Assembly (NCBI GenBank): GCA_965248265.1
Contig: CBDFJF010000001.1
Location: 352,001 to 416,000 of the forward strand
Direction: 5' to 3'
Source: Candidatus Latescibacterota bacterium
Lineage (GTDB): Bacteria; Latescibacterota; UBA2968; UBA8231
Length of the DNA stretch: 64,000 nt
Shown here: in pieces, positions 4,886 to 45,180 of the stretch
Layout of the letters: every line of letters starts with the position of its first letter
Position numbering within the stretch: position 1 is the stretch's first letter
Program-made: the position numbers and the translations under genes
The notes under the pieces: generated by a model
Database searches by the model: none
What the model saw: only the letters and a program-made list of their open reading frames with translations
What the model was told of the DNA's origin: nothing

Positions 4886-5227
4886 TCAGTCTTCGTGAGG
4901 GTGTTTAGGATTATTCCCGGTCCGAATATCAGAGACGTGCCAACGTCTGGCCAGCACCAGAAAGAGCAGTGACAGGAAAACGGTCACCCACCCGACGACA
5001 AAGGTGCTGCCTGCAATGCCGTGGTCGAGGGCCAACCAGCCGAAGGCCAGATTGAAAGTGATATGACCGATTTCTCTGCTGAAACTGACGACGGAGGTAA
5101 CGGTTGCCCGCGCATCCTGTTCGATGGCTGATTGCAACCTCGAAGCGAGCAAGATATCAACGAAGGCGAACGCGAAGAAGAAGAAACCCAGGAATGGCAC
5201 AACCAGGTTCCGGTCAACACATAAGGT
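4886..5227 (-). pseudogene. C-terminal fragment of an MFS transporter
   Basis: LQSAIEQDARATVTSVVS resembles the MFS TM10-11 loop. An in-frame TAG lies just upstream and there is no N-terminal portion. Confidence 0.6.
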
Positions 5228-5619
5228 CTACAACGATGCCCCCAACACTCTTGTCACTTCTCGCGATGTGACTTCCTCACAGAAGGGGTCTTGATCCCAT
5301 ATGCCGGCAGGCTTTTCACAAAAGAATCCCCGATTATGCCGAAAACTGCAATCGCGTTCTTGTTCAACTTGTAAACTGAAGGACCGATAAGGGGTCACTG
5401 TCAATAGACTATATCGGTTGAGGCTTGGAGTCGAGTGGGATGGGAGCTTGTCTGGGTGCGAATGGGTATTCGGCGGCATTGCGAACATGGATTCAGGGCG
5501 GGCTGGTATTTCAATGCTCGAACACGTGGAGGAAGGTCTCAAGTCCCTCGGCCTGAAAGGACGCTCCGTCACCTGCTTTCTTCCGTGTCTGAGTGCGCAA
5601 ACCACGGATCGAGGTCAGC

Positions 5620-8600
5620 TCACACTGAGGTCTTCCTCACCGATTCCAGCACGCTCAACACCGAGTCCATGTCGAACGAATCGACGTGGGGCTTGAGCAG
5701 TGCGGCCAGCTTCGCTTCATCCTCGCTCGCACACGCCATCTCCGCAATCACCAAGCGCAGTTCGGTTACATTTGCCACCTCAGCGGCTGCCCGCACACGC
5801 TCGTGCAGGTCAGCAGAAACTGTAGTCGATTCCAAGACCGCCGGTCCGGCCTCTTCGGGCGCGGCCTGATTCGCCGTTTCCTCAAATGCGACACCCAGCA
5901 TCTGCTCGAGGCACTGACAAATTTGGCCAACCCGTACCGGTTTGCCGATGAACTCGTCGAAGCCAGCCGACAGGTAGTGTTGCCGCTCGTGTTCCAGAGT
6001 TGAAGCGGATACGGCGACAATCTTGAGAGCCAGGTCCGGGTCCGCTACGAGTTTCCGCATAGCCTCCATGCCATCCATCTCGGGCATGCGGATGTCCATG
6101 AATACGATGTCCGGTCGCTCACGTCGACTGATCTCGAGCGCTTCGATACCGTTGACGGCGGAGTGCACTTCGACACCGATCGCCCCCAGCAACTGCTCCA
6201 GAATATCCCGGTTCTCGGGCACGTCATCAGCCACCAACGCTTTCACCTGACAGCCGCCAGCCAACCGCCTGACGCGGCCATAGTCTTCTTTGTGCTCGCG
6301 CACTCCTCCTGCCGCGGTCGAAAGCGGCAGAGTGAAGTAAAAGCGTGTGCCTTCGCGAGACGATTCAAACTCCAGTTCCCCACCCATCAAGTGTACAAGA
6401 CGGCGCGAGACGGCCAGGCCCAAGCCTGTCCCTCCGGTGTCCCTGCCTGCCTCTCCTTGCTGGAACGGCTGGTACAGTGTTTTCTGTTCCTCTTCCGAGA
6501 TCCCTCTCCCGCTATCGATAACCTCGAAGAGATAAGTCTCACCTCCAACCTGCGCGACGCGCAGCGTTACGTCTCCTTCCTGCGTGAACTTCACCGCGTT
6601 GCCCAACAGGTTGATCAGCACCTGCATCAACTTACTCTCATCGCCATATACCAGAACGTGTGACTCTTTCAAACTCTTGAGCTTCCAGCCCAGCGCCTGC
6701 TCGCGGCATCGTAGCTGGAACATCTCTGACACACTCTGCAGTAACCTTACCAGGTCGAAGTCGACGGCGTGAACATCCATGCGGCCGGCTTCGATCTTGG
6801 AGATATCCAGTACCTCGTTGATCAACCTGAGCAGGTGATCACCACTCGCCTGGATTGTTTCCACAGCCTGTCGATGGTTGTCCACCAACTCCGGACTGCT
6901 TTGCATGATCTGCGCATACCCGATGATGGCATTCATCGGGGTCCGGATCTCATGGCTGATATTGGCCAGAAATTGCGACTTCGCCTGGCTGGCCAGTTCG
7001 GCGGCCTCCTTGGCCTCCAGCAGCCCGGCGTTGGACTGTTCGAGCTCGGCGATGAGGCGATTCTGGGCATCCGCGGCCTCGGTGAAGTCCCGGTAACGTG
7101 CGTGCGCGAGGTCGACGACTTCGACGAAATCCTCTATGCGGGCGATCTCCCAGTTGCTGAAGGGCTCTGCTTGTCCACGCCAACCGCGGCGCACACAGAT
7201 GACGCCTGTTTCGAATGGAACGTCCAGAGCCCACACCGTGCCTGATGCGGCCAGTCCCACGTCAGCAGTACCCGAAAGCGGCGCCCACACCTCTTTCTCT
7301 CGAGGATCCATCTGTCGTGGTTTGGGTACGCCCGTGCGTGCCTCTGCCAGGAAACGTCCAACCTCATCCGGGTCCGAGATCGTGGACCTCTGCAACGCGC
7401 CCGCCGAGTCGACCTGCAACGCCTCGACGTGCGAGGTACCCTTCGGCGTGCACAGGGTGAGCTGGTCGAAATGCAGGCCGACGACCAGCAGTTCGTCCGC
7501 AATCTGGGCAAGCACTGTCTGCAGGTGCTCCGGCTGTTTCATATCGAGCACGGTTTGCCGTACGCGCTCCCGTGCTTCCTCGATGGTGAGGCTGCGTAGA
7601 TGCCCAGCGACCTCCTCGTCCTGAGTCTGAACGCTTTCCAGGACGTGGCTGGCGACGGAACGTCCAGCAACATTGAGGACCTCGGCAAGCACCCGCGGTC
7701 CGCCGACCTCCTGGTGTGCGCCCGGCACATTGCGAAGGGTGTGTTCGAGGTCTTCCTCGATATCCTTCAATACTGAGGGAGTCACGTTTTCCATGGTCGC
7801 CATCCGGTACGACACATCAGCCTGCAGGCGTGGTGAGAGCTGGGCCAGCATGGCTCCAGACTGTCGCGGATCCACTTGCGAGAGGATGAGAGCGATGGTT
7901 TGGGGGTGCTCGCGTGAGATGTGGAGGGCTACGTGCTCAGGGCTGATGTTCTTGAGGATGTAGGTGCCCGATGACGCGGTGCTGGTAACGCGCGCAAAGA
8001 TCTCATCCGCCTTGCGCCTTCCGACAGCATGCTCCAGAGCGTTCCGGGTGAACTCGGTGCCTCCGCTTGCCATCCAATCGCCAGAGCGCAGACGCCCAAC
8101 GAACTCGTCGAGCTCACGGGCGTGAATCTCGGCGGACACGTTCTGTAACGCCGCCATGGACTGGGAGACCACTTCAATCTCGTAGTCGGACAGGAGCTTG
8201 AGGATCTTTCCAGTCAACTGCTCACCGAGCCCGACCAGGACGATGGCAACCTTGACCATTGACGGCAGTTCCTCTGAGGGTGAATCAGCGTTTTCCTCGA
8301 GGGCCATGGTGCGAACGATCCGAGCAGCGTCAGCGATGTGGTGGGCAACAAACTCTCTCGGCGTCAGTGTCGCCTGGTCGATCTCCTGCCGGGGGGTGGG
8401 TGGCGCTGGTTCGCCTGCAGTGCCGCCGGTCGATTCGTCGGACAGCGGTTCCGTGTCGGCAGCTGGCGGCGGGTGTAATGCGTGTTCGGCAACGCCGGGC
8501 ACGAACCTGGGTGCAGGCTGGAGCCTGGGGGAGCCCGGTTGTCGGCTCGCGGCGAGCAGTGAGGCGGACAGGCTCCATGCCGGTTCCGGGTAGGGTGGGG

Positions 8601-8715
8601 GAAGTGGCATGGCGTCCACCTCCGTCAGGGTCAGTGGCAGCCAGTCGGCGACGGTCGCCCGCGCTGTCCTGCCAGCGGCGAGTCCCAGGATCCGTGGCTC
8701 AGTCTTGGGAGTCAT
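5620..8715 (-). CDS. FliG(N/M/ARM-C)-GAF-like-HisKA-HATPase-REC fusion; soluble hybrid histidine kinase
   Basis: FliG segment [10 protein letters not shown]...[12 protein letters not shown]...VGGPRV. Kinase motifs: H-box [19 protein letters not shown]-box [11 protein letters not shown]1 DSGRGI, G2 [12 protein letters not shown] motifs: [17 protein letters not shown]. No TM helix seen. Confidence 0.9.
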
Positions 8716-9791
8716 TGACGTTTCTCCTCACCCGCCGCGATCTCGACCGCGCTTTGCGCCAACCGAAAGCCGATGTGCTCGTTCGCATGGTCCTGCGGCG
8801 CGCTGTTGCGATGGATCGTCCTCACGTTGGGACGGGTCTCGGCATAAAAACCGCCCCGGATTACTCGCTCTTCGCCCGTGTCGGGTCCCTGTGGGTCCAG
8901 GTCAGGACTGTATGGGTAGTAGTTCGACTGGTAGAAGTCAGCGCACCACTCGTAGGCGTTGCCGGCCATGTCCCAGGCTCCGTATGGGCTACGGCCAAGG
9001 GGAAACTCATCGACCGGGGTTGTCGTGCCCACGAGATTGTTGGAATTACATCGTTCGCCATCGACGAAGTGATTCCCCCACGGGTAGAGGCGTCCGTCGT
9101 TGCCGCGGGCTGCCTTCTCCCATTCCGCTTCGGTCGGCAGACGTTTGCCGCGCCATCGGGCGTACTCATTCGCGTCTTCCCATGAGACGTTGACGACCGG
9201 ATGCCTCGACGTGCCCACGGGGTATGTTCCGTCGTGCCAGGCAGGCGGGGCGCGGTGTGAAGTGGCGTTCACGAACTCCTGGTAGCTGTGGTTGGTCACG
9301 GGATAGGCGTCGATGTAGTAGGGTGACATATCTAGTGTGTGAGTGGGTCGCTCGTTGTCCGGGCTGTCGCCTTCGTTGCTACCCATGACGAAGGAGCCGC
9401 CCGGAACGGCTACCATGCCCATCACGTCTTCCATCAATTCTGGTCCGCGCTCGATGGCTTCATAGGCGATGGTTTCGCGAAAGGCTCGAGTGATGCCAGA
9501 TGCCTCCGGCGCAGCGATCTGCTTGATCCTGCAACTGATCAGGTCGCTGCCGACGACGATGTCCCCATGGGCGAACAAGCGATCGTTTACTCGTACATCG
9601 TAGGATCGTCCTACGCGCTTGTTGAGCGTGATAAGGCCGCCGGGCTGCAGCTGCGCAAAAGCGTTCAGGCTCATCTGTAAGCGGCCGAGCTCGACCCTTA
9701 CTTCAAAGCGGATATCTCTGAGATGAGCCAGATTGCCGATTTCACGATCGACCATCTCTCTGGCGTCCGCTTCCGTAATCTTGCTGTTCAT
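8712..9791 (-). CDS. FliM/FliN C-terminal (SpoA) domain fused to an FGE-sulfatase/SUMF1-like domain
   Basis: N-terminal [12 protein letters not shown]...[13 protein letters not shown] (SpoA). C-terminal [43 protein letters not shown] and GFR (FGE fold). Confidence 0.88.
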
Positions 9792-10093
9792 CAGACGGCC
9801 CCATCCCTTACGATTTCGGTTACGCGCACCCCGAAGTTCTCGTCTACGGTAACCACCTCTCCCCGCGCTCGGACTCTGCCGTTGAGCAGGATGTCGATCG
9901 GCTCGCCCACGGCTCGTTCAAGCTCGAACAGGGAACTGTCCCCAACCTGCAGCAGTTGATCCAGCGTACAGTTCGTTCGTCCCAGCTCGAAGGCAACGGT
10001 CACTTCCACATCGCGCGTGAAATCTTCGACCGCTGACTCCTCTTTCCGCGGGGGTTGTCTTTGCGTTGGAGTATGCTTGTCTTTGCCAGCCAT
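9791..10093 (-). CDS. fliN: Flagellar motor switch protein FliN homolog
   Basis: DVEVTVAFELGRT...GEPIDILLNGRVRARGEVVTVDENFGVRVTEI, a classic FliN SpoA domain. Confidence 0.9.
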   Translation of the reverse strand: MAGKDKHTPTQRQPPRKEESAVEDFTRDVEVTVAFELGRTNCTLDQLLQVGDSSLFELERAVGEPIDILLNGRVRARGEVVTVDENFGVRVTEIVRDGAV

Positions 10094-10128
10094 GCTGCAA
10101 TCTCCGTGTTAGTGTTGGTGCGCCGTGA

Positions 10129-11094
10129 TCACTCGTTAGCGAGTGGCTGTAGCGCCTCGGGAATCTTCCCCACGGCTTTCACGGCGATGCGTCCGTTGTC
10201 CGTGGCGAACGGTCGCACGTAGAACTTGGGCAATCCTCCCACGCGCAGGATGAGAGGTTCGGTTGTCTGCGTGTCGCAGCAGATGATATCATCGACCTGC
10301 AGGCTGTCTACGTCGGCCAGGGGCAAACGCTTGCGCGCCATCTCGACGGTGAGCGGCAGTTTCACGGGGCCCAATGCAGCGCGGCTGCGCCGAGTCGCCT
10401 CCTCCTGTTCGCGGCGCCCACGGCGCACGTGGGTCTGCTGGCCAAGGAGCGGCAGGATCGACTCCAGGGTGAGGTAGGGGTAGCAGAGGCTCACCAGTCC
10501 GGATGCAAGGGGCGAATTCACCTCGAAACCGAGCACGACGACAATCTCGGCGGCGGCGGTCGTGTCCATGAACTCCGGGTTCGTTTCCAGTTCGATATCT
10601 GAGATTTCCACCGGCAGGATCGGGTGCCAGGTGTGCTCCAGATTCTCCACCACGCGCTTGACGAACTTGGCGATCACACCCATCTCGATCTGTGACATCT
10701 GTCGCTCATCGACGCCCTCCGACGAACCCTTCCCTCCGAACACGCGGTCGACGGCGGAAAAAACGAAAGGCATGGAAAAATCGAGAATGGCCTGGCCATT
10801 CGTCGGACCGAGCATGAACTGATAGGAACAGGACGGGTTTGACAAGGAGGTGATGAAATCAGCGTAGGTTTTCTGGGCAATGAAGGCTGTGTCAACGTCG
10901 ACGACGTCACGCATGGACGCGGAAAACGTCGAACTCAGCTGCCGCGCGAAGTGGTCATGTAAATTCTCCAGGGTGCGTAACTGATCCGTGTTGACCTGGG
11001 CGGGGTGCCTGAAATCGTAGGTAGCAACGATCCCATGCGATTCAGTTTCTGTCGGTGTACCATCGGTCACTGCTGTATTTGGAGTGTCACTCAT
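10129..11094 (-). CDS. fliM: Flagellar motor switch protein FliM homolog lacking the N-terminal CheY-binding peptide
   Basis: YDFRHP, LENLHDHFAR, FGGKG (GGxG), ETNPEF and a C-terminal SpoA-like region. RBS GGAG precedes the ATG at 11094. Confidence 0.88.
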   Translation of the reverse strand: MSDTPNTAVTDGTPTETESHGIVATYDFRHPAQVNTDQLRTLENLHDHFARQLSSTFSASMRDVVDVDTAFIAQKTYADFITSLSNPSCSYQFMLGPTNGQAILDFSMPFVFSAVDRVFGGKGSSEGVDERQMSQIEMGVIAKFVKRVVENLEHTWHPILPVEISDIELETNPEFMDTTAAAEIVVVLGFEVNSPLASGLVSLCYPYLTLESILPLLGQQTHVRRGRREQEEATRRSRAALGPVKLPLTVEMARKRLPLADVDSLQVDDIICCDTQTTEPLILRVGGLPKFYVRPFATDNGRIAVKAVGKIPEALQPLANE

Positions 11095-12646
11095 GCCTTG
11101 CTCCTCCTGGCGTGGTTTCTGCAGCCGTCCTGTGCAAGTCCGCAGGGTCAACCTCGTTGCGCAACACCCGGTACAACCGGTTTCGGCTCGTTCCCAGCTG
11201 ACGCGCCGCCTTCGTCACGTTGCCATCGCTCTGCTGCATGGCCACGCCTACCACCCACTTCTCCGCGCACCGCACAGCCCGATCCAGGTCCAGCGGCAAG
11301 TCGGGAGCCCCCGGACTCCTGTCACCTGAATCTCCACCTTCGCCGTCCGTCGTCGCTCGCGGAACGCGCAAGAAGTGCAAGTGATGCGGCAGTACTTCAA
11401 CGCCCCCACTCTCGATCAAGGCGCGCTCCATGAGGTTTTTCAGCTCGCGCACGTTTCCCGGAAACCGATATCGTTGCAGAATTTCCACCGCATCCAAGCT
11501 GAGATCCGGTACCTCGCGCCCCATCTCTTCCGCGAACAGCTTGAGGAAGTGGCGCGCCAGAATCGGAATGTCCTCCGTGCGCTCTCGCAGCGGCGGTGAG
11601 GTGACCGTGAACCGCGCCAGCCGGTAGTACAGATCCTGCCGAAAGCTCTTCGCCTGGAGCCGCTGTTGCAGCTCGACGTTTGTCGCCGCCAGCACCCGCA
11701 CCGCCACCTTCTTCCCCTCGGTTGCTCCGATTCGCCACACAACGCCGTCCTCCAGAACCCGCAGTAGCTTGCTCTGCAGCTCCAGTGGCATGTCGGCGAT
11801 TTCGTCCAGAAACAGCGTGCCGCCGTCGGCGATCTCGAAGAATCCGAGCCGGTCGTCACTGGCACCTGTGAATGATCCCCGGTTATGTCCGAACAGGGCC
11901 GATTCGACAAGGTCCGCCGGAATGGCCGCGCAGTTTACGGGCACGAAGGGCCCATCCTGCCTTGCCCCACCGAAGTGGATGGCCCGTGCGATCAGCTCCT
12001 TGCCGGTTCCACTCTCACCAGTGATCAGCACCGAGGTCATCGGGCTGTCCTGCATCAGATGGATCTCTTTGAAGATTCTCTGGATGGTAGCGCTCTGTCC
12101 TACGAAATCCTCCAACCCCCAGCGTACAGCTTCGCGCTCGGAAATCATCGATAGACGTCCCTTGAGCGCCTTCCGCTGGACGATCTCAAGCTCCAGCTCT
12201 CGATTGGTCTCTGCGAGTGCCGCATTCTTCCTCTGCAGTTCCGTCGCCAGCCGGCTCAGTCGCACGTGCGTTTCGACTCGAGAGAGAACCTCCTCTTCCT
12301 GGAATGGCTTGGTGATGTAGTCGACCCCACCGGCCCTGAAACCGGCAATGACATCCTCTTTTCGGTCTCGGCCGGTCAGGAAGATGACGGGAATCCCGGC
12401 GGTCTCTTCAGTTTGCTTGAGCCGTCTGCACACTTCGTATCCATCCATCTCGGGCATGACCACATCCAGCAGTACGATGTCCGGCTGGCCCCGTACCGCT
12501 ATATGGAGAGCATTCTGTCCTCTGGTTGCTACCATTACGCTATTATTCGCTGCCTCGAGAAGCTCGAGGAGGACTTTGAGGTTCGTCGGATTGTCATCGA
12601 CAATGAGGATTCTCGCTCCCCGCGGAGTGGATTGTGGCTCAACCAT
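11087..12646 (-). CDS. NtrC-family sigma54-dependent response regulator (REC, coiled coil, AAA+, Fis-type HTH)
   Basis: ILIVDD...LLDVVMP...KPF, Walker A GESGTGKE, GSFTGA loop, LFLDEI, FPGNVREL, and HTH GNVTKAARQLG. Confidence 0.93.
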   Translation of the reverse strand: MVEPQSTPRGARILIVDDNPTNLKVLLELLEAANNSVMVATRGQNALHIAVRGQPDIVLLDVVMPEMDGYEVCRRLKQTEETAGIPVIFLTGRDRKEDVIAGFRAGGVDYITKPFQEEEVLSRVETHVRLSRLATELQRKNAALAETNRELELEIVQRKALKGRLSMISEREAVRWGLEDFVGQSATIQRIFKEIHLMQDSPMTSVLITGESGTGKELIARAIHFGGARQDGPFVPVNCAAIPADLVESALFGHNRGSFTGASDDRLGFFEIADGGTLFLDEIADMPLELQSKLLRVLEDGVVWRIGATEGKKVAVRVLAATNVELQQRLQAKSFRQDLYYRLARFTVTSPPLRERTEDIPILARHFLKLFAEEMGREVPDLSLDAVEILQRYRFPGNVRELKNLMERALIESGGVEVLPHHLHFLRVPRATTDGEGGDSGDRSPGAPDLPLDLDRAVRCAEKWVVGVAMQQSDGNVTKAARQLGTSRNRLYRVLRNEVDPADLHRTAAETTPGGARHE

Positions 12647-12659
12647 CTTTATCCTCCAA

Positions 12660-12675
12660 TGCAATGCCTGTACCA
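12660..12675 (-). promoter_or_regulatory. sigma54 -24/-12 promoter candidate for the ntrC-fliM-fliN operon
   Basis: Minus strand reads TGGTAC-AGGCA-TTGCA versus consensus TGGCAC-N5-TTGCW. Caveat: the implied start site is only a few nt from ATG 12646. Confidence 0.6.
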
Positions 12676-12774
12676 ACTCGACTGGATGCTGGCTTTATAT
12701 ATTGTATTTAATTGAGTTATGACATTTTAAAAGGAGTTCGTATGCCCACTGGAATCGTACCGAATTCGTAGCAG

Positions 12775-12816
12775 TGTAACAAAATCAGTACAGATGACTG
12801 TCACGCAATCGGAACA
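12775..12816. promoter_or_regulatory. Tandem enhancer-like (UAS) boxes TGT-N12-ACA
   Basis: TGTAACAAAATCAGTACA (12775-12792) and TGTCACGCAATCGGAACA (12799-12816), 100-140 bp upstream of the -24/-12 element, with an AT-rich tract (12694-12732) between. Confidence 0.55.
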
Positions 12817-12959
12817 AGGATTGGGGAGGTTAGCTCAAGCGCAAGCTATGGGCAAGGGCGTGCGGCGATCCCGGATAAGGAAGGAGGCCGCATAAGGTTG
12901 CATCGCGTTTGTGGTGCTTTTTACTGTCCGTCCGCAGTCGCTGTCTTCCTCAGGGCAAT

Positions 12960-13228
12960 GGACCGATTTATCGCAGCGCTTCGTTTGTTGCCCTTCGTAA
13001 CGAACCCTCTAACCCTTCCTCACGGGCAGGGTGTTTCTCGTCACAAACCGGGAGACTTCCAAAGTACAACGCCGGAAGCGACTGGCGTTCGATAGACGAC
13101 ACGCATGCAGGTGGGGCTGGCAAGATACCGTGGAATGGCAAGGGTCGGAACGGGAAGCGACGGGATATATATTTACCGCTTGCGCTTGGAACCAGGTGGC
13201 TTCCAGGAAACTACTGCTCCTAAAGTGA
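12960..13228 (+). pseudogene. Decayed T9SS type-A / FlgD-Ig-like C-terminal sorting domain remnant
   Basis: Colinear pieces across three frames: RNEPSNPS, KYNAG, PWNGKGRNG, GIYIYRLR, NQVASRKLLLLK-stop. Confidence 0.55.
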
Positions 13229-30471: not shown

Positions 30472-31920
30472 GTGAAAGAAAGCGTTAAATCGTTACCCTC
30501 CGTGGACCAAATTCTCAATCTGGAGTCCACAACTGAGCTGCTGCGCAGGTACCGGCGGGAGCACGTCACCGCGACGGTTCGCCGGGCACTGCAAGAGCTG
30601 CGCGAAGAGCTGATCGCGCAGGTGAAGGCTACCAACGGCGCATCCACGGCGCCGGGGTCGACTACCCGTGACTCGCTGACGGCTCGAGTCGAGTCCATGA
30701 TTGCCGTGGCCCTTGGCGCCGAAAACCAGGCCAGCCTCCATCCCGTCATCAACGCAACCGGAGTTATCCTTCACACCGGTCTGGGGCGCGCGCCGCTGCC
30801 GGCGCAGGCTCTGGAGGCGATCCGAGATGTGGCCGGGAGTTACTGCAACCTGGAACTCGACCTGCAGTCGGGTGATCGGGGTTCGCGCTTCGTCCATATT
30901 GAACCACTGATCTGCGAACTCTCCGGCGCCGAGGCGGCCGTGGTCGTCAACAACAACGCGGGAGCGGTGCTGCTGATGTTGAGCGTTCTCGCGTGTGGCC
31001 GTGAGGTCATCGTCTCCCGCGGCGAACTGGTCGAGATAGGGGGCTCCTTCCGAATTCCCGACATAATAGAAGCCAGTGGCGCCACGATTCGCGAAGTCGG
31101 AACAACGAATCGAACCCATTTAGCCGACTATGAAAATGCGATCTCCGCGGATACCGGACTTATCCTGGCCGTCCATCCGAGCAATTACAGGGTCGAGGGC
31201 TTCACCTCGGGAGTCGATCTGACCGAACTCGTCGAACTCGGAACGCGCGCCGGGGTTGCGGTGGCCTACGACCTGGGAGGAGGTGCCCTGATGGATCTCG
31301 CAGAATGGGGTCTGCCGCGCGAACCGGTCGTCGGGCAGGCGCTGGCGACTGGCGTTGACGTGGTCAGCTTCAGTGGGGACAAAGTGCTCGGCGGCCCCCA
31401 GGCCGGGATCATAGCCGGCAAGCAGGGCTGTGTGCAGGCCATGCGGAATCATCCGATGATGAGGGCCTTGCGCTGTGACAAGCTCATACTCGCCGCTCTC
31501 GAGGCGACCCTCAAGCTCTACAACCTGCCCCCCGCTGAGATTACCGAACTCCATCCCGTGTTGCGCATGCTCTGCGAGCCGGCAGACCTGACGCAGGCGC
31601 GAGCAAGGCAACTGCTCGGCATGCTTTCCTCGCGAGCCCGGTCGCAACTGTCGCCACAGGTCGAAGCCTCGAAAGCGCAAGGCGGCAGCGGCGCCCTGCC
31701 TTTAGTGGAACTCCCCAGCTGGGCCCTGTCATTGGCGCCCCGTTTTTGCACCATAGTGCAATTGGCGCGGGCACTACGCAACGGCGCCGTGCCGGTGGTC
31801 GGACGAATACAGAAGGACAGGCTCCTCCTCGATGTGCGCACGGTGTTCGACGGTGATATCGAACTCCTCGCCAGTGCCCTGGAGGCTGCACTCCCAGCCC
31901 CGGACGGCACCGACGCGTAG
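30472..31920 (+). CDS. selA: L-seryl-tRNA(Sec) selenium transferase
   Basis: VINATGVILHTGLGRA, VNNNA, SRGELVEIGGSFRIP, EVGTTNRT and SGDKVLGGPQAG. Confidence 0.96.
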   Translation: MKESVKSLPSVDQILNLESTTELLRRYRREHVTATVRRALQELREELIAQVKATNGASTAPGSTTRDSLTARVESMIAVALGAENQASLHPVINATGVILHTGLGRAPLPAQALEAIRDVAGSYCNLELDLQSGDRGSRFVHIEPLICELSGAEAAVVVNNNAGAVLLMLSVLACGREVIVSRGELVEIGGSFRIPDIIEASGATIREVGTTNRTHLADYENAISADTGLILAVHPSNYRVEGFTSGVDLTELVELGTRAGVAVAYDLGGGALMDLAEWGLPREPVVGQALATGVDVVSFSGDKVLGGPQAGIIAGKQGCVQAMRNHPMMRALRCDKLILAALEATLKLYNLPPAEITELHPVLRMLCEPADLTQARARQLLGMLSSRARSQLSPQVEASKAQGGSGALPLVELPSWALSLAPRFCTIVQLARALRNGAVPVVGRIQKDRLLLDVRTVFDGDIELLASALEAALPAPDGTDA

Positions 31921-32403: not shown

Positions 32404-33444
32404 CTACACGAAGGTGTCTTCGGCGCTGCCGCGTACGATCTGAATCTGACCCTGGTCCTCCAGCTGGCGGACCTTCTGGACGATGCGCAGTTGCACTTCC
32501 TCGACCTCGCTCAGTCGCATCGGACCGGTGAATTCCATCTCTTCTTCGATGAAGCCCCGGACACGATCGGACATGTTGGTGAGAAGTTTATCCTTTACCT
32601 CTTCGCTGGCGGCCTTGAGTGCGATGACCAGATCCTTCTGCTCTACTTCGCGCAGGATCGTTTGCACTTCTCGGTCGGTCAGTTTGTGGATGTCGTCGAA
32701 GACGAACATCATGTTGCGGACGATTTCAGCCACTTCTGGATCCTGAGCGTCGAGTCGGTCGAGGACATTCTTCTCCACCGAACCGCCGGTCAAGTTGAGA
32801 ATGTCGGCGACTACCTTGGGACCACCCACATCCTGATTGCCACCCAGGATGTCACGCAGGTTGGCCTCGAGGCTCTCCTCAATCTGCTTCAACACATTAG
32901 GCGTGATGTTTTCCATCACCGCGATCCGGTAGGCGACTTCGGCCTGAATACGCTCGGGTAGCTGGGCGATGATGCCGGCCGCCTGCTGCGGCTCCAGTTG
33001 CGACAGGATCAGGGCAATCGTCTGTGGGTGTTCATGTGAAATGAAGGGAGCAAGCTGTTCGGGGGGCACGTTCTTGAGCAGGTAAAACCCGGAGCTGACC
33101 GTGCTCATGATCCGGTCGAGAATCTCTTGAGTCTTGCGCGGGCCGACGGCGCGCTCGAGGGCGCCGCGAGCGAAATCGACGCCGCCCTGGCTCATGTATT
33201 CGCCAGCCAGCAAGTGCTGCTCGAAATCGGCCAGGACCTCGTCCTGGAGCTCGATCGGCAGATGCTTTAGTTCGGTAATGGTGTGGGTAATGTCCTCGAT
33301 CTCGTAATCAGTCAGGTACTTCAGAACCTCCCCGGCGTTCTCCTGTCCCAGGGCGACCATGAGTACGGCGACTTTCTGGCGTGGATCGAGGCCATCGTCC
33401 TCGCCTGCGGCCAGTTTCATGTCATTCTCCGGTCCATATTCCAT
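32404..33444 (-). CDS. fliG: Full-length flagellar motor switch protein FliG homolog (orphan)
   Basis: [29 protein letters not shown] and NMSDR..FIEEEME..GPMRLSEVE; RBS GAGGT. Confidence 0.93.
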   Translation of the reverse strand: MEYGPENDMKLAAGEDDGLDPRQKVAVLMVALGQENAGEVLKYLTDYEIEDITHTITELKHLPIELQDEVLADFEQHLLAGEYMSQGGVDFARGALERAVGPRKTQEILDRIMSTVSSGFYLLKNVPPEQLAPFISHEHPQTIALILSQLEPQQAAGIIAQLPERIQAEVAYRIAVMENITPNVLKQIEESLEANLRDILGGNQDVGGPKVVADILNLTGGSVEKNVLDRLDAQDPEVAEIVRNMMFVFDDIHKLTDREVQTILREVEQKDLVIALKAASEEVKDKLLTNMSDRVRGFIEEEMEFTGPMRLSEVEEVQLRIVQKVRQLEDQGQIQIVRGSAEDTFV

Positions 33445-33577
33445 TTTGGTAACCTCGCTCAGAATAAACGTCCCCATGCACAGAAAAATATTTCCCTGCA
33501 TAGGCACTCGGTACGCCGCTTTGTCTTGTCCTTGTAGGCCGATCGATAGCCGATCCGCAGGGACTTGCCCATCACCT

Positions 33578-33593
33578 TGCAAACGGGGGGCCA
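33578..33593 (-). promoter_or_regulatory. sigma54 -24/-12 promoter candidate for the orphan fliG
   Basis: Minus strand TGGCCC-CCCGT-TTGCA, about 135 bp upstream of the start codon. Confidence 0.55.
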
Positions 33594-33687
33594 AGGTGTG
33601 GCCGTCGAGCCTGGCCATGCGACTGAGAAAGACAGGCAGAACACTAGCGTAGGGTTAATGTCCGCAGTCGCTTAGGTCAATTTCGCC

Positions 33688-38952: not shown

Positions 38953-41900
38953 ATGACACATCCTCCTCCCCCCGTGTTGCGAGTTTTGCCCTTTGTTATT
39001 GGTGCTGCCACCCTTTTCCAGAGCGGCGTGGAGGCCAAGATAGGCCTTAAGCCGTCGGCTTTGCCGACTCCTCTGTCGCAACTCTACACAGAGCCACCCG
39101 CCAATGCGCCGCTGACGTCGCGCGGACCGGGAATGTTTCGCAGCCGGGCCACCAAGCCGCTACTGGAGCTTTCGTCATCGTTCACGGACAAGCGGGTAGT
39201 CGTGGATCCCACCGGCGCTCATTATACGCCCCACGCCGCAGGGTTTCCCACCGGTCCGACGATCACGCTGCCGCTCGAATCCTACCTAGGGTTGGGGCAT
39301 TCGCTGATGTTCCAACGCCGTTGGCGCGAAACCGTGCGGTCCGAATTTTCCCGGGCCGCCGCCCGTCAACAGCGTCAAGGGAAATCGCGTCTTGAATGGC
39401 GTGTGCCGCTACCTGCGCCGAAACCGTTGCGCCGGTTTATCGGCGACGAGGGACAGCTGAAGATCAACGGCAAGCACACGGCGACGATCGGTGGCAAGAG
39501 CCAGTGGACGGCTGGGGAGGTGCGCACGCTGGCAGGCGGTCCGTCCAAGTTTCCGGCACTGACCATGGATCAGGAGTCGCAGTTCACGGTCGAAGGCAAG
39601 GTCGGTGAGGCCATTAACATCCGTATAACACAGGATACCCAGCAGTTGGGAACGTCCTTCAGGGATCAGCTGGCCAATCAAATCAAGCTGGACTACAAGG
39701 GAGACGAGGACGCCGTATTCCAGGAGGTGCAGGCAGGCAACACCACGCTGGCCTTGCCCAGTACTCGCTTCGTCGGCTTCAACCAACAGCACAAGGGCTT
39801 GTTCGGCATCCGCGCCAGGGGCCGCCTCGGACCCCTCGGGTTTACGACCATCGCCAGCCACGAAAAGAGCGAGAGCAAGCGCAGCACCTTTCGCGGCGGT
39901 GCGCGCGTGGACACGATGACGATAAAAGACTACGAGTACCTGCCGCGCACCTATTTCTTCCTCGACCCTGTCTACGGCGAGCGCCTGGAAGACTATCGTG
40001 AGGTGGCGCGGGCGCGGCCCCAGGATTTCAATCCGGCCGACATAATCGACGAGCGCAGTCTCGAGGTCTACATCAACGACTTCAACGTCAACAACGACCC
40101 CGAGCAACTGGCCAAACAGGGAATCGCCTGGGTGGATGCTGAGTACACTGCGAATCGGGTTAACGGTACCTGGGGTCAGCACGAGATCGACGAATCAAGC
40201 GGCTACTTCGAACAAGGTACCTGGCATCGCCTGGATCCCGATGACGACTACGGTCTGGTGGCAGAGCTGGGGTATATCGTCATGCGCACACCCATCGCAG
40301 AGAGACACTCGCTGGCAGTGCGGTACCGCACCGTCGGCAGCGCGGCAGCATCCGTCGCCGGGGAACAATTTGGCGATACCCGCGGTGATACTCTACAGCT
40401 CAAGCTCATCCAGGCGCGCGATTCGCGCCCCAACTTTCCGACCTGGGACCTCGAGTGGCGCAATGTCTATCGCATAAGTCGCAGCTTTGCCCGCGGCAAG
40501 AAGTTCGAAGAGGACAAGATCCGCGTGCAAGTCCTCAAGGAGGTGGCCGGTCGTGAACCGCAGACGTCGCAGGACGGCAAACGCTATCTGCAGATCTTCG
40601 GAATCGACGAACACGGACAGGATCCAGGCACCCCCCCCGACCAGATAATCGATGCCGATTATATCGGATTGGATGGCGTGCGCGGGGTTTTGATCTTTCC
40701 CGCCCGCAAACCGTTCGCCCCGGTAGAAGGGGCCCCGGGATTCGGGGAGTTGCAGGACACCGTAGAGGAGATCTACACCAGTCAACAGGACCGGGACAAG
40801 ATCGAGGCCAGCACGTACCTGATACAGGTTGTCAACAGCTCCGGACAACAGCGTATCAACCTAACCCAGGGGCGCCTGGCCGGTGTCGATCCAGAGTCCG
40901 TCGACGTGCGCCTCAACGGCAAATCCTTGACGCGCGGGAAGGACTTCCGGGTGAGTTTCAACGGAGAAGTCACCTTCATGGGCCAAGCACAGTCGTCGGT
41001 CTCCGATCCAGGCGCGGACTTGGAGATCAGCTTCGAGTCTGAGGACCTGATCGGCATCGGGGGGCAGCAGAAGACCCTCGTCGGCATGCGCACGGAGTAC
41101 GAATTCTGGGAAGGGGATGGCAGCATCGGGACCACGGTCCTCTACAACAACGAGCGCAGTTCGGACAAGAGAGTCCGTGTGGGCCGCGAGCCGGCTCGCA
41201 CCATCGTTTGGGATACCGATCTGCGAGCGAATTTCGAGGCCCCGATCCTGACGCGCATTGTCGATGCCCTGCCGCTGTTGAAGACGGCTGCCGCGTCGAA
41301 GGTGACGGTCCAGGCCGAAATCGCCCAGAGCCGACCCAACCTGAATACCCGCGGACAGGGGTACATCGACGATTTCGAGGGCAGCGAGCGACCGGAGATC
41401 CTCAGCATGTTTCGAACCCGGTGGACGCCGGCTAGCATACCCGAAGATTCCGGTCTCGACGAGACCAACCGCGGTCGAATGATCTGGTTCAACCCGCTCA
41501 ACAAGGTTTCACGCCTTGAGATCTGGCCGCAACAGGAAGGTCAGATCGACTCGCGCAATAACGACATCGATATCCTGGTGATGGAGTTGACGGGCGGCCG
41601 TCCATTGGAGCCGTCCTGGGAAGGGCTGATGACCCCATGGACCGGAGGCGTCAGAGATTTCTCCCAGTCAAAATTTCTCGAGATATGGGCCCGTGGCGAC
41701 GAGGGGAGCGTGCACATCGACCTGGGCGACATCAGCGAAGACTACACCCGCCGTGAGCTGGATGAGGGTGACATGGCCGTGCTCTCTCTCGAGGAGAAAC
41801 TGGCCAAGTTGAGGACCGGGGACCGCAAGTTGGACACCGAAGACAAACCGCTGCCTGGACGGATCAGCGGTGACGGCGTGGCTTCGATCGAGGAGGACAT

Positions 41901-44900
41901 CGGTATCGATCGACGCACTGACGAGCAAGAACTGAACTTTTATCTGGCTCTTGCTGACGCCGATACCAGCGGTTCAATAGAAGACCGGCGCCAACTTTTT
42001 CGCGCAATCGAAGAGTACTCCGGTCGCCGGGCCGTAGATCCGGAGGGTGACAACTGGGACTTCAACGAACGCAACTACGATCAGATCAACGGAACACAGG
42101 GAAGCGGTCGCAGCGAGACGCAACGCCCCGATTCTGAGGACATCAACAACGACGGCATCGTCAACACCGCCAACAATTACTTTCACCATACCATCGATCT
42201 GGCCAACGACGAGCACGTTCCAGGCACGCGGAGCCTCTCAGGCTGGAGGTTGTTTCGACGACCATTGTTCGACGGCGCAGTGAAGCGCATCGGCTCTCCG
42301 GATTCGAGCCGGATCGAGTCCGCCCGTATTCTGTTCGTCAACGACGGAGCAAGTCTGGATGAGGTATCTCGGCTCGAAATCGTCCAGCTGGAAATCATCG
42401 GCAACGACTGGCAGGAGAACGACATCTTCACGTTCGGTCAGGAAACAGACGTGATCGGAGACACCGAAGAGATGTTCAACGTCGCCATCATCGGCACCGA
42501 CGAGAACGCCGACTACGAGCCGCCGCCGGGAATCAAGTTGCGCCGACTCGGCAGTTCCCGAACCAGGGAGCGGGAACAGTCGCTGGTGCTGGATTACGAG
42601 AGTCTGTTGCCGCAACATCAGGCTTCGGCCTCAAAGGTATTGTCAAGCAACAGCGACTACACCAAGTACACCCGCTTGCGCATGTTCGCGTATGGGGATA
42701 CCGCCGATGTCTCTTACGTCACCAGCGACACCACCAGCGACATCCAGTTGTTCGTACGATTCGGTCGCGACAGTGCCAACTACTACGAGTTTGCCACGCC
42801 GGTGTTTCCCAAGTGGGACCGGCGCAACTGGGTCGATGTCGACCTGCTGACAATGTCTCAGCTCAAGGCGCAATTGCAGAGGCAGCCGGAACTCGACTCA
42901 CTTGCCACCGTCATCCGGGATCCAGCCGTGCGTGATGGCTTGCCGGCCGTCTACCTGGTGCGCGGCAATCCATCCATGCAGCAGATCAAGCAGTTGACTG
43001 TCGGGGTGCGCAACACCAGTGAGATCCACTCCTATACCGGCGAGGTCTACACCGACGAGTTGCGCCTCGACGAGGCGCGCAACGATGCCGGACTGGCTGC
43101 TTTCGTGCGGGTGAACACGTCGCTGGCCGATTTCATGAGCGTCGACGGGTCCGTGGATTGGCAGTCCCAGGATTTTCGGACATTAGCAAACACAGCCCGA
43201 AAAAGTGAGGACATGCGTACGAGTTTGACGACGACGACGAACGTCCATCGCTTTCTGAAGGGAACGTGGGGTTTCTCGATACCCGTCAAAGCCACTCTCA
43301 GCCGCAACGTCAGTCTTCCGCGTTTCGGGCCGAACTCCGATGTCGAGTTGCTGTCGAACGAACGGGATTCCCTGCGCACTCAAACCACTAAGCAATTCTA
43401 CGAAGTGTCGATGAGCAAGCGGAAGGGGAAGGCCTGGTACACGCGCTGGACCATTGACCAGATGAGCATGAGGATGTCGTCGTCGACGGAACGCGGAAGG
43501 TCTCCCGTCGTCGAGCGCAGCAGCAAGCAGATCAAGACGGGTTCGTTCAAATACCAGGTGCCGTTTCCGAAGACGGCTGGCCGCTTTCTCGAGTGGTTGC
43601 CAGAGTACATGCCGAAGGGAATGCGGAGGGCACGGTTGAAGTATTTCCCCTCGAATCTGTCCTACACCATGAATGCCAACAAGACGGATGAGTTCTCAAA
43701 GCGAACGACGGATCCGGCACCCACGACGCGCGATGCCTTCGAGCTCAAGGAGACCTACACTTCCAAGTTAAATCCCCTCAGCATCGTCGCTGGCGACTAC
43801 AGCCTGCAGGTGACCAGGGACCTGCGCAAGAAATACGATCTTCAGAAACTGAGCTTCGGGCGTGAGGTAAAGCGCAACCAGAAGACGGGTCTCAAGATGA
43901 CACCGCGGTTGATGAGCTGGTTCGATCAGAACTATTCGTTCCAGGCGACCTACGAAGAAAACAGCGATCCACGCAGCCGGCGCACGAGCGCCGTGACGGA
44001 TTCGGTGACGGGGTCGATCATCCGTACCCGGGACATCACGACCAAGAACGAGCTCAACGCGCGCTGGAATCTGAAACTGCCGACGCTGTTGAAAGCGGTC
44101 GGCAAGCCGGCGGGTAAAACAAGGGGGGCTGTGCCCAAAGCCAAGAAGAAGGATACGGAGGACAAGCCGCAGGACAAGAAGGATCGGGACAGAAAGCCAT
44201 TGTTCTTGCGACGGTTCGTGTTCTTCTCAGCGGCGTACGTCGATCCATTGAGCAGCTCGTGGCGACGCAACGTAACCTCACGCAGCTTCAACCTGGTCGA
44301 TCGTCCCTCTTTCATGTACCAGATAGGCCTGGAGGATAATCTTGGGGTGTCGAGGGCGGGAACCGGATTGACCCAGCAGGACAGCTGGAGTCGCGGCACC
44401 ACGACCGAAACCGCTTCAGGGTTGAAGCTGCCATTGGGTGTCAGCGTCAAAACGAGCTTCAAGCGCAATCTTACCAAGCGCAGCGGCAGCACCCAGACTC
44501 GGCTCCGGGTTGAGGAAGACACCAAATTCCCGGAAATAAACGTAAACTGGGGCCGAGCTAATCGATTGCCGTTGCTCCAGCGGTATCTCAACAGCGCCCA
44601 GGTCAACGTCCAGTTCAGGGAGTCGCAATCGAAACAGGGCGAGGGCAGCATTCAACCCCGAAGTCTGCTCCAGAGGGGCACGAATCAGGAATTCTCCGGT
44701 TCATGGACCGGTCAATGGCGATGGGGGCCGGCCACGACGATTCGCTCGTCACGCAGCAACGGCGAGGACATTGACTTTGAATTGCCGACCATCGATGACG
44801 AGGCTGATGATCAGGGACTGGACCTGACTCCGCGCGTGAGGGGGCGTGGGTTGACGGAGCGCAACAATCACAGTCTCGAAGTCAAACACAATCTACGACC

Positions 44901-45180
44901 ACGTTCATTGCCGTTGTTCGGTCAGTTGAAGAGCAATGTGGATTTGCGTCTGAAGTTCGAATTGGAGGACGAGATCCGCTCCAGCGCCACGGGCGACGAG
45001 GAACAGGCGCCGATATCGATCACGGAGCGCTGGCGCTTCGAGTTCAAGGCGGATTACAAATTCAGTGACCTTTTTCGCGGCGGTGCCTTCATCCGGGCGG
45101 AGAACAACACGGATGGGCTGACGTCGAGAACGCGCAAGGTGCGTGAAGTTAAAGTGTCAGGCATTTTCCTCTTCAAATAA
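38953..45180 (+). CDS. sprA: SprA/Sov-like outer-membrane protein (T9SS translocon homolog)
   Basis: 2075 aa with a signal peptide; NQIKLDYKGDED..QEVQAGN..L.LP, GLFGI, YIDDFEG, WFNP, IDLGDISED, LDTED and DELRL; beta-strand-rich C-terminus. Confidence 0.85.
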   Translation: MTHPPPPVLRVLPFVIGAATLFQSGVEAKIGLKPSALPTPLSQLYTEPPANAPLTSRGPGMFRSRATKPLLELSSSFTDKRVVVDPTGAHYTPHAAGFPTGPTITLPLESYLGLGHSLMFQRRWRETVRSEFSRAAARQQRQGKSRLEWRVPLPAPKPLRRFIGDEGQLKINGKHTATIGGKSQWTAGEVRTLAGGPSKFPALTMDQESQFTVEGKVGEAINIRITQDTQQLGTSFRDQLANQIKLDYKGDEDAVFQEVQAGNTTLALPSTRFVGFNQQHKGLFGIRARGRLGPLGFTTIASHEKSESKRSTFRGGARVDTMTIKDYEYLPRTYFFLDPVYGERLEDYREVARARPQDFNPADIIDERSLEVYINDFNVNNDPEQLAKQGIAWVDAEYTANRVNGTWGQHEIDESSGYFEQGTWHRLDPDDDYGLVAELGYIVMRTPIAERHSLAVRYRTVGSAAASVAGEQFGDTRGDTLQLKLIQARDSRPNFPTWDLEWRNVYRISRSFARGKKFEEDKIRVQVLKEVAGREPQTSQDGKRYLQIFGIDEHGQDPGTPPDQIIDADYIGLDGVRGVLIFPARKPFAPVEGAPGFGELQDTVEEIYTSQQDRDKIEASTYLIQVVNSSGQQRINLTQGRLAGVDPESVDVRLNGKSLTRGKDFRVSFNGEVTFMGQAQSSVSDPGADLEISFESEDLIGIGGQQKTLVGMRTEYEFWEGDGSIGTTVLYNNERSSDKRVRVGREPARTIVWDTDLRANFEAPILTRIVDALPLLKTAAASKVTVQAEIAQSRPNLNTRGQGYIDDFEGSERPEILSMFRTRWTPASIPEDSGLDETNRGRMIWFNPLNKVSRLEIWPQQEGQIDSRNNDIDILVMELTGGRPLEPSWEGLMTPWTGGVRDFSQSKFLEIWARGDEGSVHIDLGDISEDYTRRELDEGDMAVLSLEEKLAKLRTGDRKLDTEDKPLPGRISGDGVASIEEDIGIDRRTDEQELNFYLALADADTSGSIEDRRQLFRAIEEYSGRRAVDPEGDNWDFNERNYDQINGTQGSGRSETQRPDSEDINNDGIVNTANNYFHHTIDLANDEHVPGTRSLSGWRLFRRPLFDGAVKRIGSPDSSRIESARILFVNDGASLDEVSRLEIVQLEIIGNDWQENDIFTFGQETDVIGDTEEMFNVAIIGTDENADYEPPPGIKLRRLGSSRTREREQSLVLDYESLLPQHQASASKVLSSNSDYTKYTRLRMFAYGDTADVSYVTSDTTSDIQLFVRFGRDSANYYEFATPVFPKWDRRNWVDVDLLTMSQLKAQLQRQPELDSLATVIRDPAVRDGLPAVYLVRGNPSMQQIKQLTVGVRNTSEIHSYTGEVYTDELRLDEARNDAGLAAFVRVNTSLADFMSVDGSVDWQSQDFRTLANTARKSEDMRTSLTTTTNVHRFLKGTWGFSIPVKATLSRNVSLPRFGPNSDVELLSNERDSLRTQTTKQFYEVSMSKRKGKAWYTRWTIDQMSMRMSSSTERGRSPVVERSSKQIKTGSFKYQVPFPKTAGRFLEWLPEYMPKGMRRARLKYFPSNLSYTMNANKTDEFSKRTTDPAPTTRDAFELKETYTSKLNPLSIVAGDYSLQVTRDLRKKYDLQKLSFGREVKRNQKTGLKMTPRLMSWFDQNYSFQATYEENSDPRSRRTSAVTDSVTGSIIRTRDITTKNELNARWNLKLPTLLKAVGKPAGKTRGAVPKAKKKDTEDKPQDKKDRDRKPLFLRRFVFFSAAYVDPLSSSWRRNVTSRSFNLVDRPSFMYQIGLEDNLGVSRAGTGLTQQDSWSRGTTTETASGLKLPLGVSVKTSFKRNLTKRSGSTQTRLRVEEDTKFPEINVNWGRANRLPLLQRYLNSAQVNVQFRESQSKQGEGSIQPRSLLQRGTNQEFSGSWTGQWRWGPATTIRSSRSNGEDIDFELPTIDDEADDQGLDLTPRVRGRGLTERNNHSLEVKHNLRPRSLPLFGQLKSNVDLRLKFELEDEIRSSATGDEEQAPISITERWRFEFKADYKFSDLFRGGAFIRAENNTDGLTSRTRKVREVKVSGIFLFK

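Follow-up and report, generated by a model that had tools for sequence, protein, structure and literature searches.

An operon of flagellar switch-protein paralogues, a hybrid histidine kinase and a sigma54 activator in Candidatus Latescibacterota

Gene content of the operon and the FliG-kinase fusion

A stretch of 64,000 nt (referred to here as the window) of the Candidatus Latescibacterota assembly GCA_965248265.1, corresponding to positions 352,001 to 416,000 of contig CBDFJF010000001.1, was analysed for an operon in which paralogues of the flagellar switch proteins FliG, FliM and FliN are encoded together with a two-component system. The genome (designated G000) measures 7.3 Mb and is represented by two contigs (C1 and C2); coordinates are those of the window unless a contig is given. 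The operon, also termed the cassette below, consists of five co-oriented minus-strand genes (5620-12646) in the order ntrC, fliM, fliN, fliN-FGE and fliG-kinase. The gene junctions reported in a first-pass annotation of this DNA (overlaps of 8, 1 and 4 nt at the first, third and fourth junctions and a gap of 35 nt at the second) were reproduced when recomputed from the coordinates, and each of the domains named there, encompassing all three switch-protein types with two of the proteins fused to non-flagellar domains, was matched in Pfam. The start of ntrC, previously placed near 12816, was reassigned to an ATG at 12646. Logan contigs from two runs of one sample, possibly the source of the assembly, were shown to cover 5600-13000 in one piece with 0 differences. 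The five proteins are predicted to be devoid of transmembrane segments: their Kyte-Doolittle means over 19 residues do not exceed 1.56, compared with 1.88 for a membrane-anchored control.

The fliG-kinase gene (5620-8715 (-)) encodes a protein of 1031 aa, matched in Pfam by FliG_N (E-value 2.5e-28), FliG_M (3e-26), HisKA (6e-22), HATPase_c (4.7e-29) and Response_reg (8.5e-23). Its FliG-like part is represented by FliG_N (residues 150-248; 7972-8268 (-)), FliG_M with the EHPQ motif (residues 259-331; 7723-7941 (-)) and, by alignment, the ARM_C segment running from GGP to LRSL (residues ~338-390; 7546-7704 (-)), which ends at the position of the MFXF hinge, where the protein swings during motor switching. 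Alignment with the seven full-length FliGs of the genome revealed that FliG_N, ARM_M with EHPQT, helix MC, the GGP turn and ARM_C are kept, and that homology stops at the residue before the hinge, the kinase part taking the place of the six-helix torque domain. FliG_C, which the first-pass annotation had proposed to seek along with FliG_N and FliG_M, was returned as a weak echo over FliG_M (E-value 6.1e-05) with no stretch passing, and the torque domain is absent by alignment. The switch-complex interface motifs were confirmed, with EHPQ present as E269-H270-P271-Q272 (EHPQT being invariant in 19 of 19 aligned family members) and GGxG read as FGGKG in the cassette FliM.

Downstream of the hinge, an alpha/beta domain (residues ~395-528; 7132-7533 (-)), for which the AlphaFold2 block showed predicted local distance difference test (pLDDT) values mostly between 85 and 91, leads into a long signalling helix. 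The histidine-kinase core (6319-6984 (-)) encompasses HisKA (residues 578-644, with H588) and HATPase_c (residues 691-799), and the receiver of the hybrid kinase (residues 827-935, with D874; 5911-6237 (-)) was delimited by Pfam and family alignment. Assignment as a hybrid histidine kinase is based on the H-box histidine, the ATP-binding boxes and the receiver aspartate; among 19 sequences H588 is invariant, D874 nearly so and the kinase boxes invariant or nearly so. The C terminus is formed by a helical domain (residues ~965-1029; 5629-5823 (-)) of four helices, modelled over residues 968-1024. With E-values of up to 10 allowed, no Pfam match was obtained for the N-terminal 140 aa, residues ~400-577 or the C-terminal 96 aa. 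A Foldseek search with the model of the whole kinase returned only histidine kinases and phytochromes, the best being ShkA, GacS and RetS (E-values 1e-17 to 1e-14). The kinase core and receiver fold are shared with these hybrid kinases, whereas the input region is here a FliG paralogue in place of a periplasmic, PAS or HAMP sensor.

The N terminus carries a conserved motif (residues ~8-45; 8581-8694 (-)) that reads RILG ... W-x-P-P ... E-x(4)-P ... YP in the consensus of 19 sequences. A motif of this RILG/WxPP type is also present in the FliG of a second cassette of this genome (cassette H) and occurs internally in two FliM-FliN-FliG fusions, P0018 and P0019, all of which are described below. 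Mimicry of the FliH N terminus by this motif is conceivable; the FliH of this genome has 'VILG' and is devoid of WxPP.

The first gene, ntrC (11087-12646 (-)), encodes a response regulator of 519 aa with a receiver (REC) domain, a sigma54 AAA+ domain containing the GSFTGA loop and a Fis-type helix-turn-helix (HTH) domain (Response_reg, 3.7e-29; Sigma54_activat, 9.4e-65; HTH_8, 5.6e-06), features that place it in the NtrC family. RpoN and 29 such activators are encoded by the genome, and no switch genes were found near the closest NtrC paralogue (C1:1275923-1278421). The product of fliM (10129-11094 (-); Pfam FliM, 3.3e-46; FliMN_C, 1.2e-11) consists of a middle domain with GGKG and a SpoA C-domain, and shares 62% identity with its counterpart in the flagellar cluster described below. 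It lacks the N-terminal CheY-binding peptide that the flagellar-cluster FliM possesses (MGDILSQDEIDALL); the motif of this CheY-P-binding peptide is LSQxEIDALL. The fliN paralogue (9791-10093 (-)) encodes a SpoA domain of 100 aa (FliMN_C, 5.7e-20).

The fliN-FGE gene (8712-9791 (-)) encodes a SpoA domain joined to a domain of the formylglycine-generating enzyme (FGE) fold. The former (residues 23-92; 9516-9725 (-); FliMN_C, 1.1e-14) also matches the solved FliN chains 1o6a and 1yab; the latter (residues 124-345; 8757-9422 (-); FGE-sulfatase, 2.6e-63) matches solved FGEs with an E-value of 1.5e-43. Both catalytic cysteines are absent from the fused domain, the CxxxxC stretch (RGGSYLCHDSYCN in 6muj and 2q17) being replaced by A--ETRPN in an alignment to 6muj, 2q17 and 6s07, and the domain is therefore not a formylglycine-generating enzyme. 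Its fold is shared with the FGE family and non-catalytic relatives (6muj, 2q17, PvdO 5hha and PorK 9mzu), from which it differs in that it is without the active-site cysteines, cytoplasmic and joined to a SpoA domain, and a role as a binding module is therefore probable. Small membrane-anchored paralogues encoded in the same genome share 66-68% identity with it and are likewise without the catalytic cysteines. Three FGE-fold proteins with an N-terminal membrane helix and a coiled coil (G000:C1:3019136-3020191; C2:2250018-2250965; C2:2000432-2001409), mutually 85-89% identical at the protein level, represent its closest relatives, and no recurrent neighbours were found in common among four membrane-anchored FGE paralogues. 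In a metagenome protein search, FliN-FGE fusions were observed in at least 40 of the 120 best clusters. The FGE fold was also found with FliG N/M in single frames of ~700 aa in three other genomes (G042:C1:3021824-3023380, 747 aa; G039:C8:33371-34945, 718 aa; G065:C20:2894-4432, 692 aa).

FliF-tail segment, conservation and promoter region

Cassette FliGs were shown by alignment to carry an N-terminal extension, unlike solitary FliGs. In the FliG-kinase this extension includes helices resembling the C-terminal tail of FliF (residues ~117-140; 8296-8367 (-)), located directly before FliG_N. The segment is the sole conserved island in an otherwise variable N-terminal region, with the family consensus QQxVRxRPEDAAKLVRTML in 19 sequences; an orthologue provides the example ETPHDILLSRVQQRVRERPEDAAKLVRTMLMEE, again directly before FliG_N, and the FliF of this genome ends in ETPHDIILSRVQQMVRERPEDAAKLIRTMLVEDTA (QQMVRERPEDAAKLIRTMLVEDTA). 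When the last 60 aa of this FliF were compared by phmmer with 27 FliG-type proteins, 13 were matched at an E-value of 0.002 or below, i.e. 12 of 17 FliG-kinases and one of two FliM-FliN-FliG fusions, the matches always lying just before FliG_N (best E-value 3.8e-18, 71% identity over 42 aa). None of the six solitary FliGs was matched in this comparison. A looser BLAST search with the FliF tail added two more kinases and the FliG of cassette H (E-value of 0.004 or below); it returned no match for the kinases P0016 and P0017.

FliG_N is known to co-fold with the FliF C terminus, over ~46 residues of the latter (PDB 5tdy), and fusions of FliF to FliG in full frame are able to assemble (PMC7355467; PMC6079021). 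Since the tail co-folds with FliG_N in the motor, a fused tail alone should satisfy FliG_N without an MS ring, and the presence of such a copy in cis argues for MS-ring independence of the FliG-kinases. The order of FliF tail followed by FliG_N is the same as in the engineered fusions; the FliG-kinases differ in holding only the tail of FliF, without its membrane helices, ring-building domains or a membrane template or anchor. In the protein encoded in the window the tail copy was modelled as two helices (residues 119-125 and 127-139; block pLDDT 84 and 79). Complex prediction with FliG_N (residues 147-258) and this tail-like segment (residues 105-146) gave a score of 0.53, compared with 0.00 for the best of three controls, with runs agreeing in at least 87% of contacts and a partner pLDDT of at least 62. 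Among reference cases, 58 of 80 solved complexes cleared the pass mark applied, as did 2 of 110 mismatched pairs; passes with a score of 0.60 or under comprised 7 of the 80 solved complexes and both of the passing mismatches, so that the value obtained for the window protein lends weak support to cis-docking of the tail.

Of 168 species genomes searched within the phylum, four (G000, G150, G094 and G098, all of one family) contain a match spanning FliG through HisKA; FlhA is encoded by 63 of the 168. With kinase residues 100-560 as query, the combination of FliG_N, FliG_M and HisKA was recovered in 16 further metagenome protein clusters (36-51% identity), HATPase_c and REC also being present in most of them, and two of the 16 bear source names within Candidatus Latescibacteria/Latescibacterota. 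The loci read ntrC-fliM-fliN-fliN'-fliG-kinase in G098, ntrC-fliM-fliN-fliN-fliN_FGE-fliG-kinase-REC_PP2C-STAS in G094 and fliG-kinase-REC_PP2C in G150, where a 5-kb contig ends inside the kinase gene. The order ntrC-fliM-fliN...fliG-kinase was thus observed in all three of the loci long enough to show it, and the ntrC orthologues upstream of fliM in G094 and G098 are 62-65% identical to that of the window. Chimeric misassembly, which would have confined the fusions to this one assembly, is excluded by the recurrence of the fusion in the three further species genomes and the 16 clusters, and of the gene order in G098 and G094.

Upstream of ntrC, a candidate sigma54 (-24/-12) promoter was identified (TGGTACAGGCATTGCA; 12660-12675 (-)) that agrees with 10 of 11 consensus positions, a quality encountered in 14 of 5000 random 380-nt windows. 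An imperfect palindrome (CTACGAATTCGGTAC; 12757-12771 (-)), located ~110 nt upstream of the ntrC ATG, represents a candidate activator-binding site. Comparable elements precede ntrC in G098 (sigma54-like site TGGCATGTCCTTTGCC at -47 and perfect palindrome GTACCGATTTCGGTAC at -155 from the start) and in G094 (CGGCACGCCCTTTGCG at -53 and perfect palindrome GTACCGATCTCGGTAC at -201). The link to sigma54 drawn in the first-pass annotation is strengthened by this combination of promoter and palindrome in three genera, which suggests that the operon is autoregulated. Matches of at least 10 of 11 positions were obtained at 2 of 18 tested gene starts, compared with the 14 of 5000 random windows. A sigma54-like site (TGGCCCCCCGTTTGCA; 33593-33578 (-)) was also observed ~150 nt upstream of the likely start (MEYGPEN) of the solitary fliG that is encoded in the window (32404-33618 (-)). 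Among seven flagellar starts guessed from open reading frames (flgB, fliE, fliF, flgE, motA, the fliM of the flagellar cluster and the fliM at C2:3294175), none exceeded 8 of 11 in this consensus scan. As regards output, the receiver of the REC-PP2C protein of G094 has its best receiver match in G000 in that of the window NtrC (56% over 165 aa), a likeness that fits two response regulators being served by one kinase.

Flagellum and further switch genes of the genome

The lack of flagellar genes for which the first-pass annotation had proposed to test was not observed: flhA, fliF and ten flagellin matches are present in the genome, the organism thus being flagellated, and FlhA was found in four of four fusion-bearing genomes. 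The flagellar genes are clustered on the other contig (G000:C2:~4094-4120 kb), and the operon is not encoded together with fliF, fliH, fliI, flhA, mot and rod/hook genes. It had also been reasoned that the cassette proteins would read as part of a motor-attached sensor if they were the only FliM and FliN of a flagellar system, whereas the cluster was found to encode its own fliM, with the CheY-binding peptide given above, and its own fliN, in addition to motAB. Within the window, the stated lack of fliF, export, rod, hook, flagellin, mot and che genes held in a Pfam scan of ~42 open reading frames, small frames being covered only in part, while the window's switch genes proved not to be limited to the operon, since the solitary fliG at 32404-33618 (-) is full length with FliG_N, FliG_M and FliG_C all strong.

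Pfam matches to switch-protein families are abundant in the genome (15 FliMN_C, 8 FliM and 20 FliG_N). Six of the seven full-length FliGs are encoded at solitary, scattered loci with unrelated neighbours, and no recurrent neighbours in common were found among these six; three of them (A, B and C) share 85-89% DNA identity over the coding region only. Two other cassettes were observed. Cassette G (C2:272854-275667) has the order fliN-fliN-fliG-fliM and encodes a full-length FliG with an N-terminal extension and a FliM that is 78% identical to the motor FliM and lacks the CheY-binding peptide. Cassette H (C2:1677730-1681347) encodes an extracytoplasmic function (ECF) sigma factor, a zf-HC2 anti-sigma factor, two FliNs, FliG and FliM, in this order. 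Its FliG contains the N and M domains only, ends at the same hinge as the kinase fusion and carries a FliF-tail-like helix and a RIFG...WRPP motif, and its FliM is without the CheY peptide; cassette H therefore represents a second pairing of a torque-less FliG with transcription regulators. In P0018 and P0019 (922-942 aa), FliM, FliN, a RILG/WxPP-like motif, a FliF-tail-like helix and a full-length FliG are combined in one chain, i.e. a whole C-ring protomer in a single polypeptide. A further FliM (G000:C2:3293180-3294220), ~44% identical to the motor FliM and with a variant CheY-binding-like N terminus (DLISDDDLQDLL), may be part of a second switch set.

In G071, a single-contig genome of 100% completeness from a sister family, no FHIPEP match was obtained and a truncated FliF (308 aa) is encoded beside fliI. 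This genome keeps five FliM matches, a fliM-fliN-FGE-fliG(short) cluster and a FliM-FliG fusion. It was not classed as aflagellate, given nine flagellin matches, several of which lie in short frames; its flagellum may be decaying while cassettes are retained. In the window itself, small open reading frames located 3' of the kinase gene (5228-5605 and 4886-5200) gave no Pfam match, and a 2075-aa SprA-like protein of the type IX secretion translocon family (38953-45180 (+)) and selenocysteine synthase SelA (30472-31920 (+)) are encoded by genes unrelated to the operon.

A proposed role of the switch complex as input module of a two-component pathway

The favoured reading, to which a probability of roughly 50% is assigned, is that the operon encodes an MS-ring-independent switch-complex module that gates a hybrid kinase signalling to an autoregulated sigma54 activator. 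In this view, a switch-complex paralogue that is soluble and uncoupled from the motor would serve as the input module of a two-component pathway. Uncoupling is indicated by the replacement of the torque domain at the hinge, the FliF tail in cis, the FliM without CheY peptide and the flagellar cluster's possession of its own fliM and fliN. The FliG-like part would stack with its neighbours and bind FliM via FliG_N, ARM_M, helix MC and ARM_C, the stator-facing torque domain being gone, and the FliF-tail copy would co-fold with FliG_N in cis or with that of a neighbour, such that no MS ring would be needed and FliF would probably be excluded. FliM, FliN and FliN-FGE would complete a C-ring-type protomer, present as a ring, an arc or single protomers, with a base that bears the non-catalytic FGE-fold (C-type-lectin-like) binding domain. 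The state of this FliM/FliN base, set by occupancy of the FGE domain with a putative ligand, by CheY-P in relatives whose FliM has the peptide, or by the degree of oligomerization, would determine the conformation of FliG_M/ARM_C and, in turn, raise or lower autophosphorylation of H588. Phosphate would then be passed to the NtrC-type activator and, in relatives, also to the REC-PP2C/STAS partner-switching pair; phosphorylated NtrC may bind the upstream palindrome and fire the operon's own sigma54 promoter, resulting in positive feedback. More tentatively, the products may be free-standing, self-templated protomers that oligomerize without an MS ring and in which the cooperative two-state switching of the motor turns a graded input (CheY-P or an FGE ligand) into kinase signalling to sigma54 of an all-or-none kind, with the sister cassettes possibly acting likewise on the ECF sigma/anti-sigma pair.

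Several observations weigh against this interpretation. All four fusion-bearing genomes are flagellated, and no case of the operon without a flagellum was encountered among them. The flagellar cluster lacks fliG (fliF is followed directly by fliH), and some FliG paralogues must therefore serve the motor; moreover, the 62% identity between cassette and motor FliM makes mixing into the motor ring conceivable, and the cassette FliM of G094 keeps a CheY-binding peptide, which would allow a link to chemotaxis or the motor. The FliF-tail copy in the window is degenerate (37.5% identity over 24 aa, E-value 0.019, first helix shortened), and the weak prediction of its complex with FliG_N concerns a kind of complex that has already been solved, so that the pass may stem from memorization by the predictor. 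The model of the whole FliG-kinase has a low global confidence (predicted template modelling score 0.32). A histidine phosphotransfer domain, as would be expected for a phosphorelay, was not found; the histidine of the kinase tail is not conserved among the orthologues compared, and the tail is thus not such a domain by sequence. The FGE domain is replaced by a plain second FliN in the G098 orthologue, and the FGE fold is thus a recurrent but optional decoration of such cassettes. At the promoter, the -12 element lies 14 nt from the ATG, so that the GGAGGA ribosome site would fall outside the transcript, and a search for the palindrome elsewhere in the genome yielded 0 perfect copies and one with a single mismatch among 27 sites with two or fewer mismatches; no second copy is convincing, and no regulon is known beyond the operon.

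Part of this evidence would be accounted for if the cassette proteins exchanged into the real C ring through FliM-FliM, SpoA-SpoA and ARM_M/ARM_C contacts, placing the kinase where FliG_C otherwise faces the stators, from where it could report load, stall or switching, or act as a torque-less brake. Such a motor-attached sensor or modulator is regarded as rather unlikely, while being the strongest of the alternatives. It agrees with the presence of a flagellum in this genome and in all fusion-bearing genomes, with the identity of the cassette and cassette G FliMs to the motor FliM (62% and 78%, respectively) and with the CheY-binding peptide in G094; mixed rotors are plausible, given a flagellar cluster without fliG and six solitary FliGs, and C-ring subunits reportedly turn over (PMC4161238). 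However, the FliF-tail copy in cis should occupy FliG_N and leave no docking on the MS ring, the FliM of the window has no CheY peptide, and with FliG, FliM and two types of FliN the operon supplies an entire protomer, for which a guest subunit would have no use.

An assembly checkpoint akin to FlgS/FlgR is improbable. The FliG-like kinase would in this case sense completion of MS ring and rotor, and NtrC would turn on sigma54-dependent flagellar genes or fliG paralogues. FlgS of Campylobacter jejuni co-precipitates with FliF and FliG and requires both to activate FlgR and sigma54 (PMC3760246), and this system shares with the operon a cytoplasmic histidine kinase physically tied to FliF/FliG that signals to an NtrC-family sigma54 activator. 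FlgS is a protein separate from the actual MS ring and rotor, which it senses, and rod and hook genes are under its control, whereas the kinase studied here is covalently built into a FliG paralogue that comes with a FliF tail, FliM and FliN of its own. The sigma54-like site 5' of the solitary fliG in the window (33593-33578) is in line with a checkpoint; conversely, no match better than 8 of 11 occurs at the seven flagellar starts tested, the palindrome was not found elsewhere in the genome, the REC-PP2C output of G094 and G150, accompanied by a STAS protein in G094, is not known to act in flagella, and the cassette's own FliM, FliN and FGE domain would be left unexplained. FlgS/FlgR is the nearest described analogue, and fits less well than either a motor-attached sensor or the MS-ring-independent module. 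Very improbable is a set of decaying or neutral flagellar duplicates lying beside a two-component system without joint function: the genome is rich in switch-gene copies, as the FliMN_C, FliM and FliG_N counts illustrate, and the FliF-tail copy of the window is degenerate, yet all frames are intact, three genera have the fusion and the gene order in common at ~50-65% identity, little or no variation is seen in EHPQT, H588, D874 and the kinase boxes, and the overlaps of 8, 1 and 4 nt point to translational coupling.

Compared with the flagellar C ring, the set encoded by the operon shares all three protein types, including FliG_N, FliG_M with EHPQ, ARM_C, the FliM middle domain with GGxG and the SpoA domains, and its proteins are 54-62% identical to the motor or solitary copies of the same genome. 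It differs from the C ring in being without the torque domain and the CheY peptide, in possessing a cis FliF tail and an FGE-bearing FliN, and in the location of its genes, which are separate from the flagellar cluster and form an operon with that of a sigma54 activator. SpoA proteins of the FliM/FliN type are also found outside a rotating motor in the injectisome sorting platform (SctQ pods), which has no FliG homologue and no kinase, and which serves secretion rather than signalling. To our knowledge, FliG, FliM and FliN are known solely as parts of the flagellar motor, and relatives of FliM and FliN as parts of injectisomes. In agreement with the first-pass annotation, which knew of no described system with this architecture, literature searches returned no description of a FliG-kinase, a FliN-FGE fusion or switch-protein cassettes. 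The operon combines two known kinds of system, i.e. a two-component system and the flagellar switch, and there is a substantial chance that it represents a new type of signalling assembly.

The operon is a conserved one in which a complete switch set minus the torque domain is joined by a kinase at the switching hinge and in which the FliF docking peptide has been internalized. It belongs to a wider pattern in the phylum that includes many FliG paralogues, fusions of the FGE fold to FliN and to FliG, single-chain FliM-FliN-FliG proteins and a flagellar cluster without fliG. If the favoured reading is correct, it would reveal a new kind of input module for two-component signalling and illustrate the release and reuse of one sub-complex from a large machine. 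A switch complex that is soluble, possibly independent of the MS ring and readable through an enzyme activity would also become available, by which the conformational mechanism of motor switching, a matter of long debate, could become testable in vitro. Should the products indeed be free-standing machines, they would constitute a new class of bacterial receptor array, with a flagellar sub-complex at work outside the flagellum.

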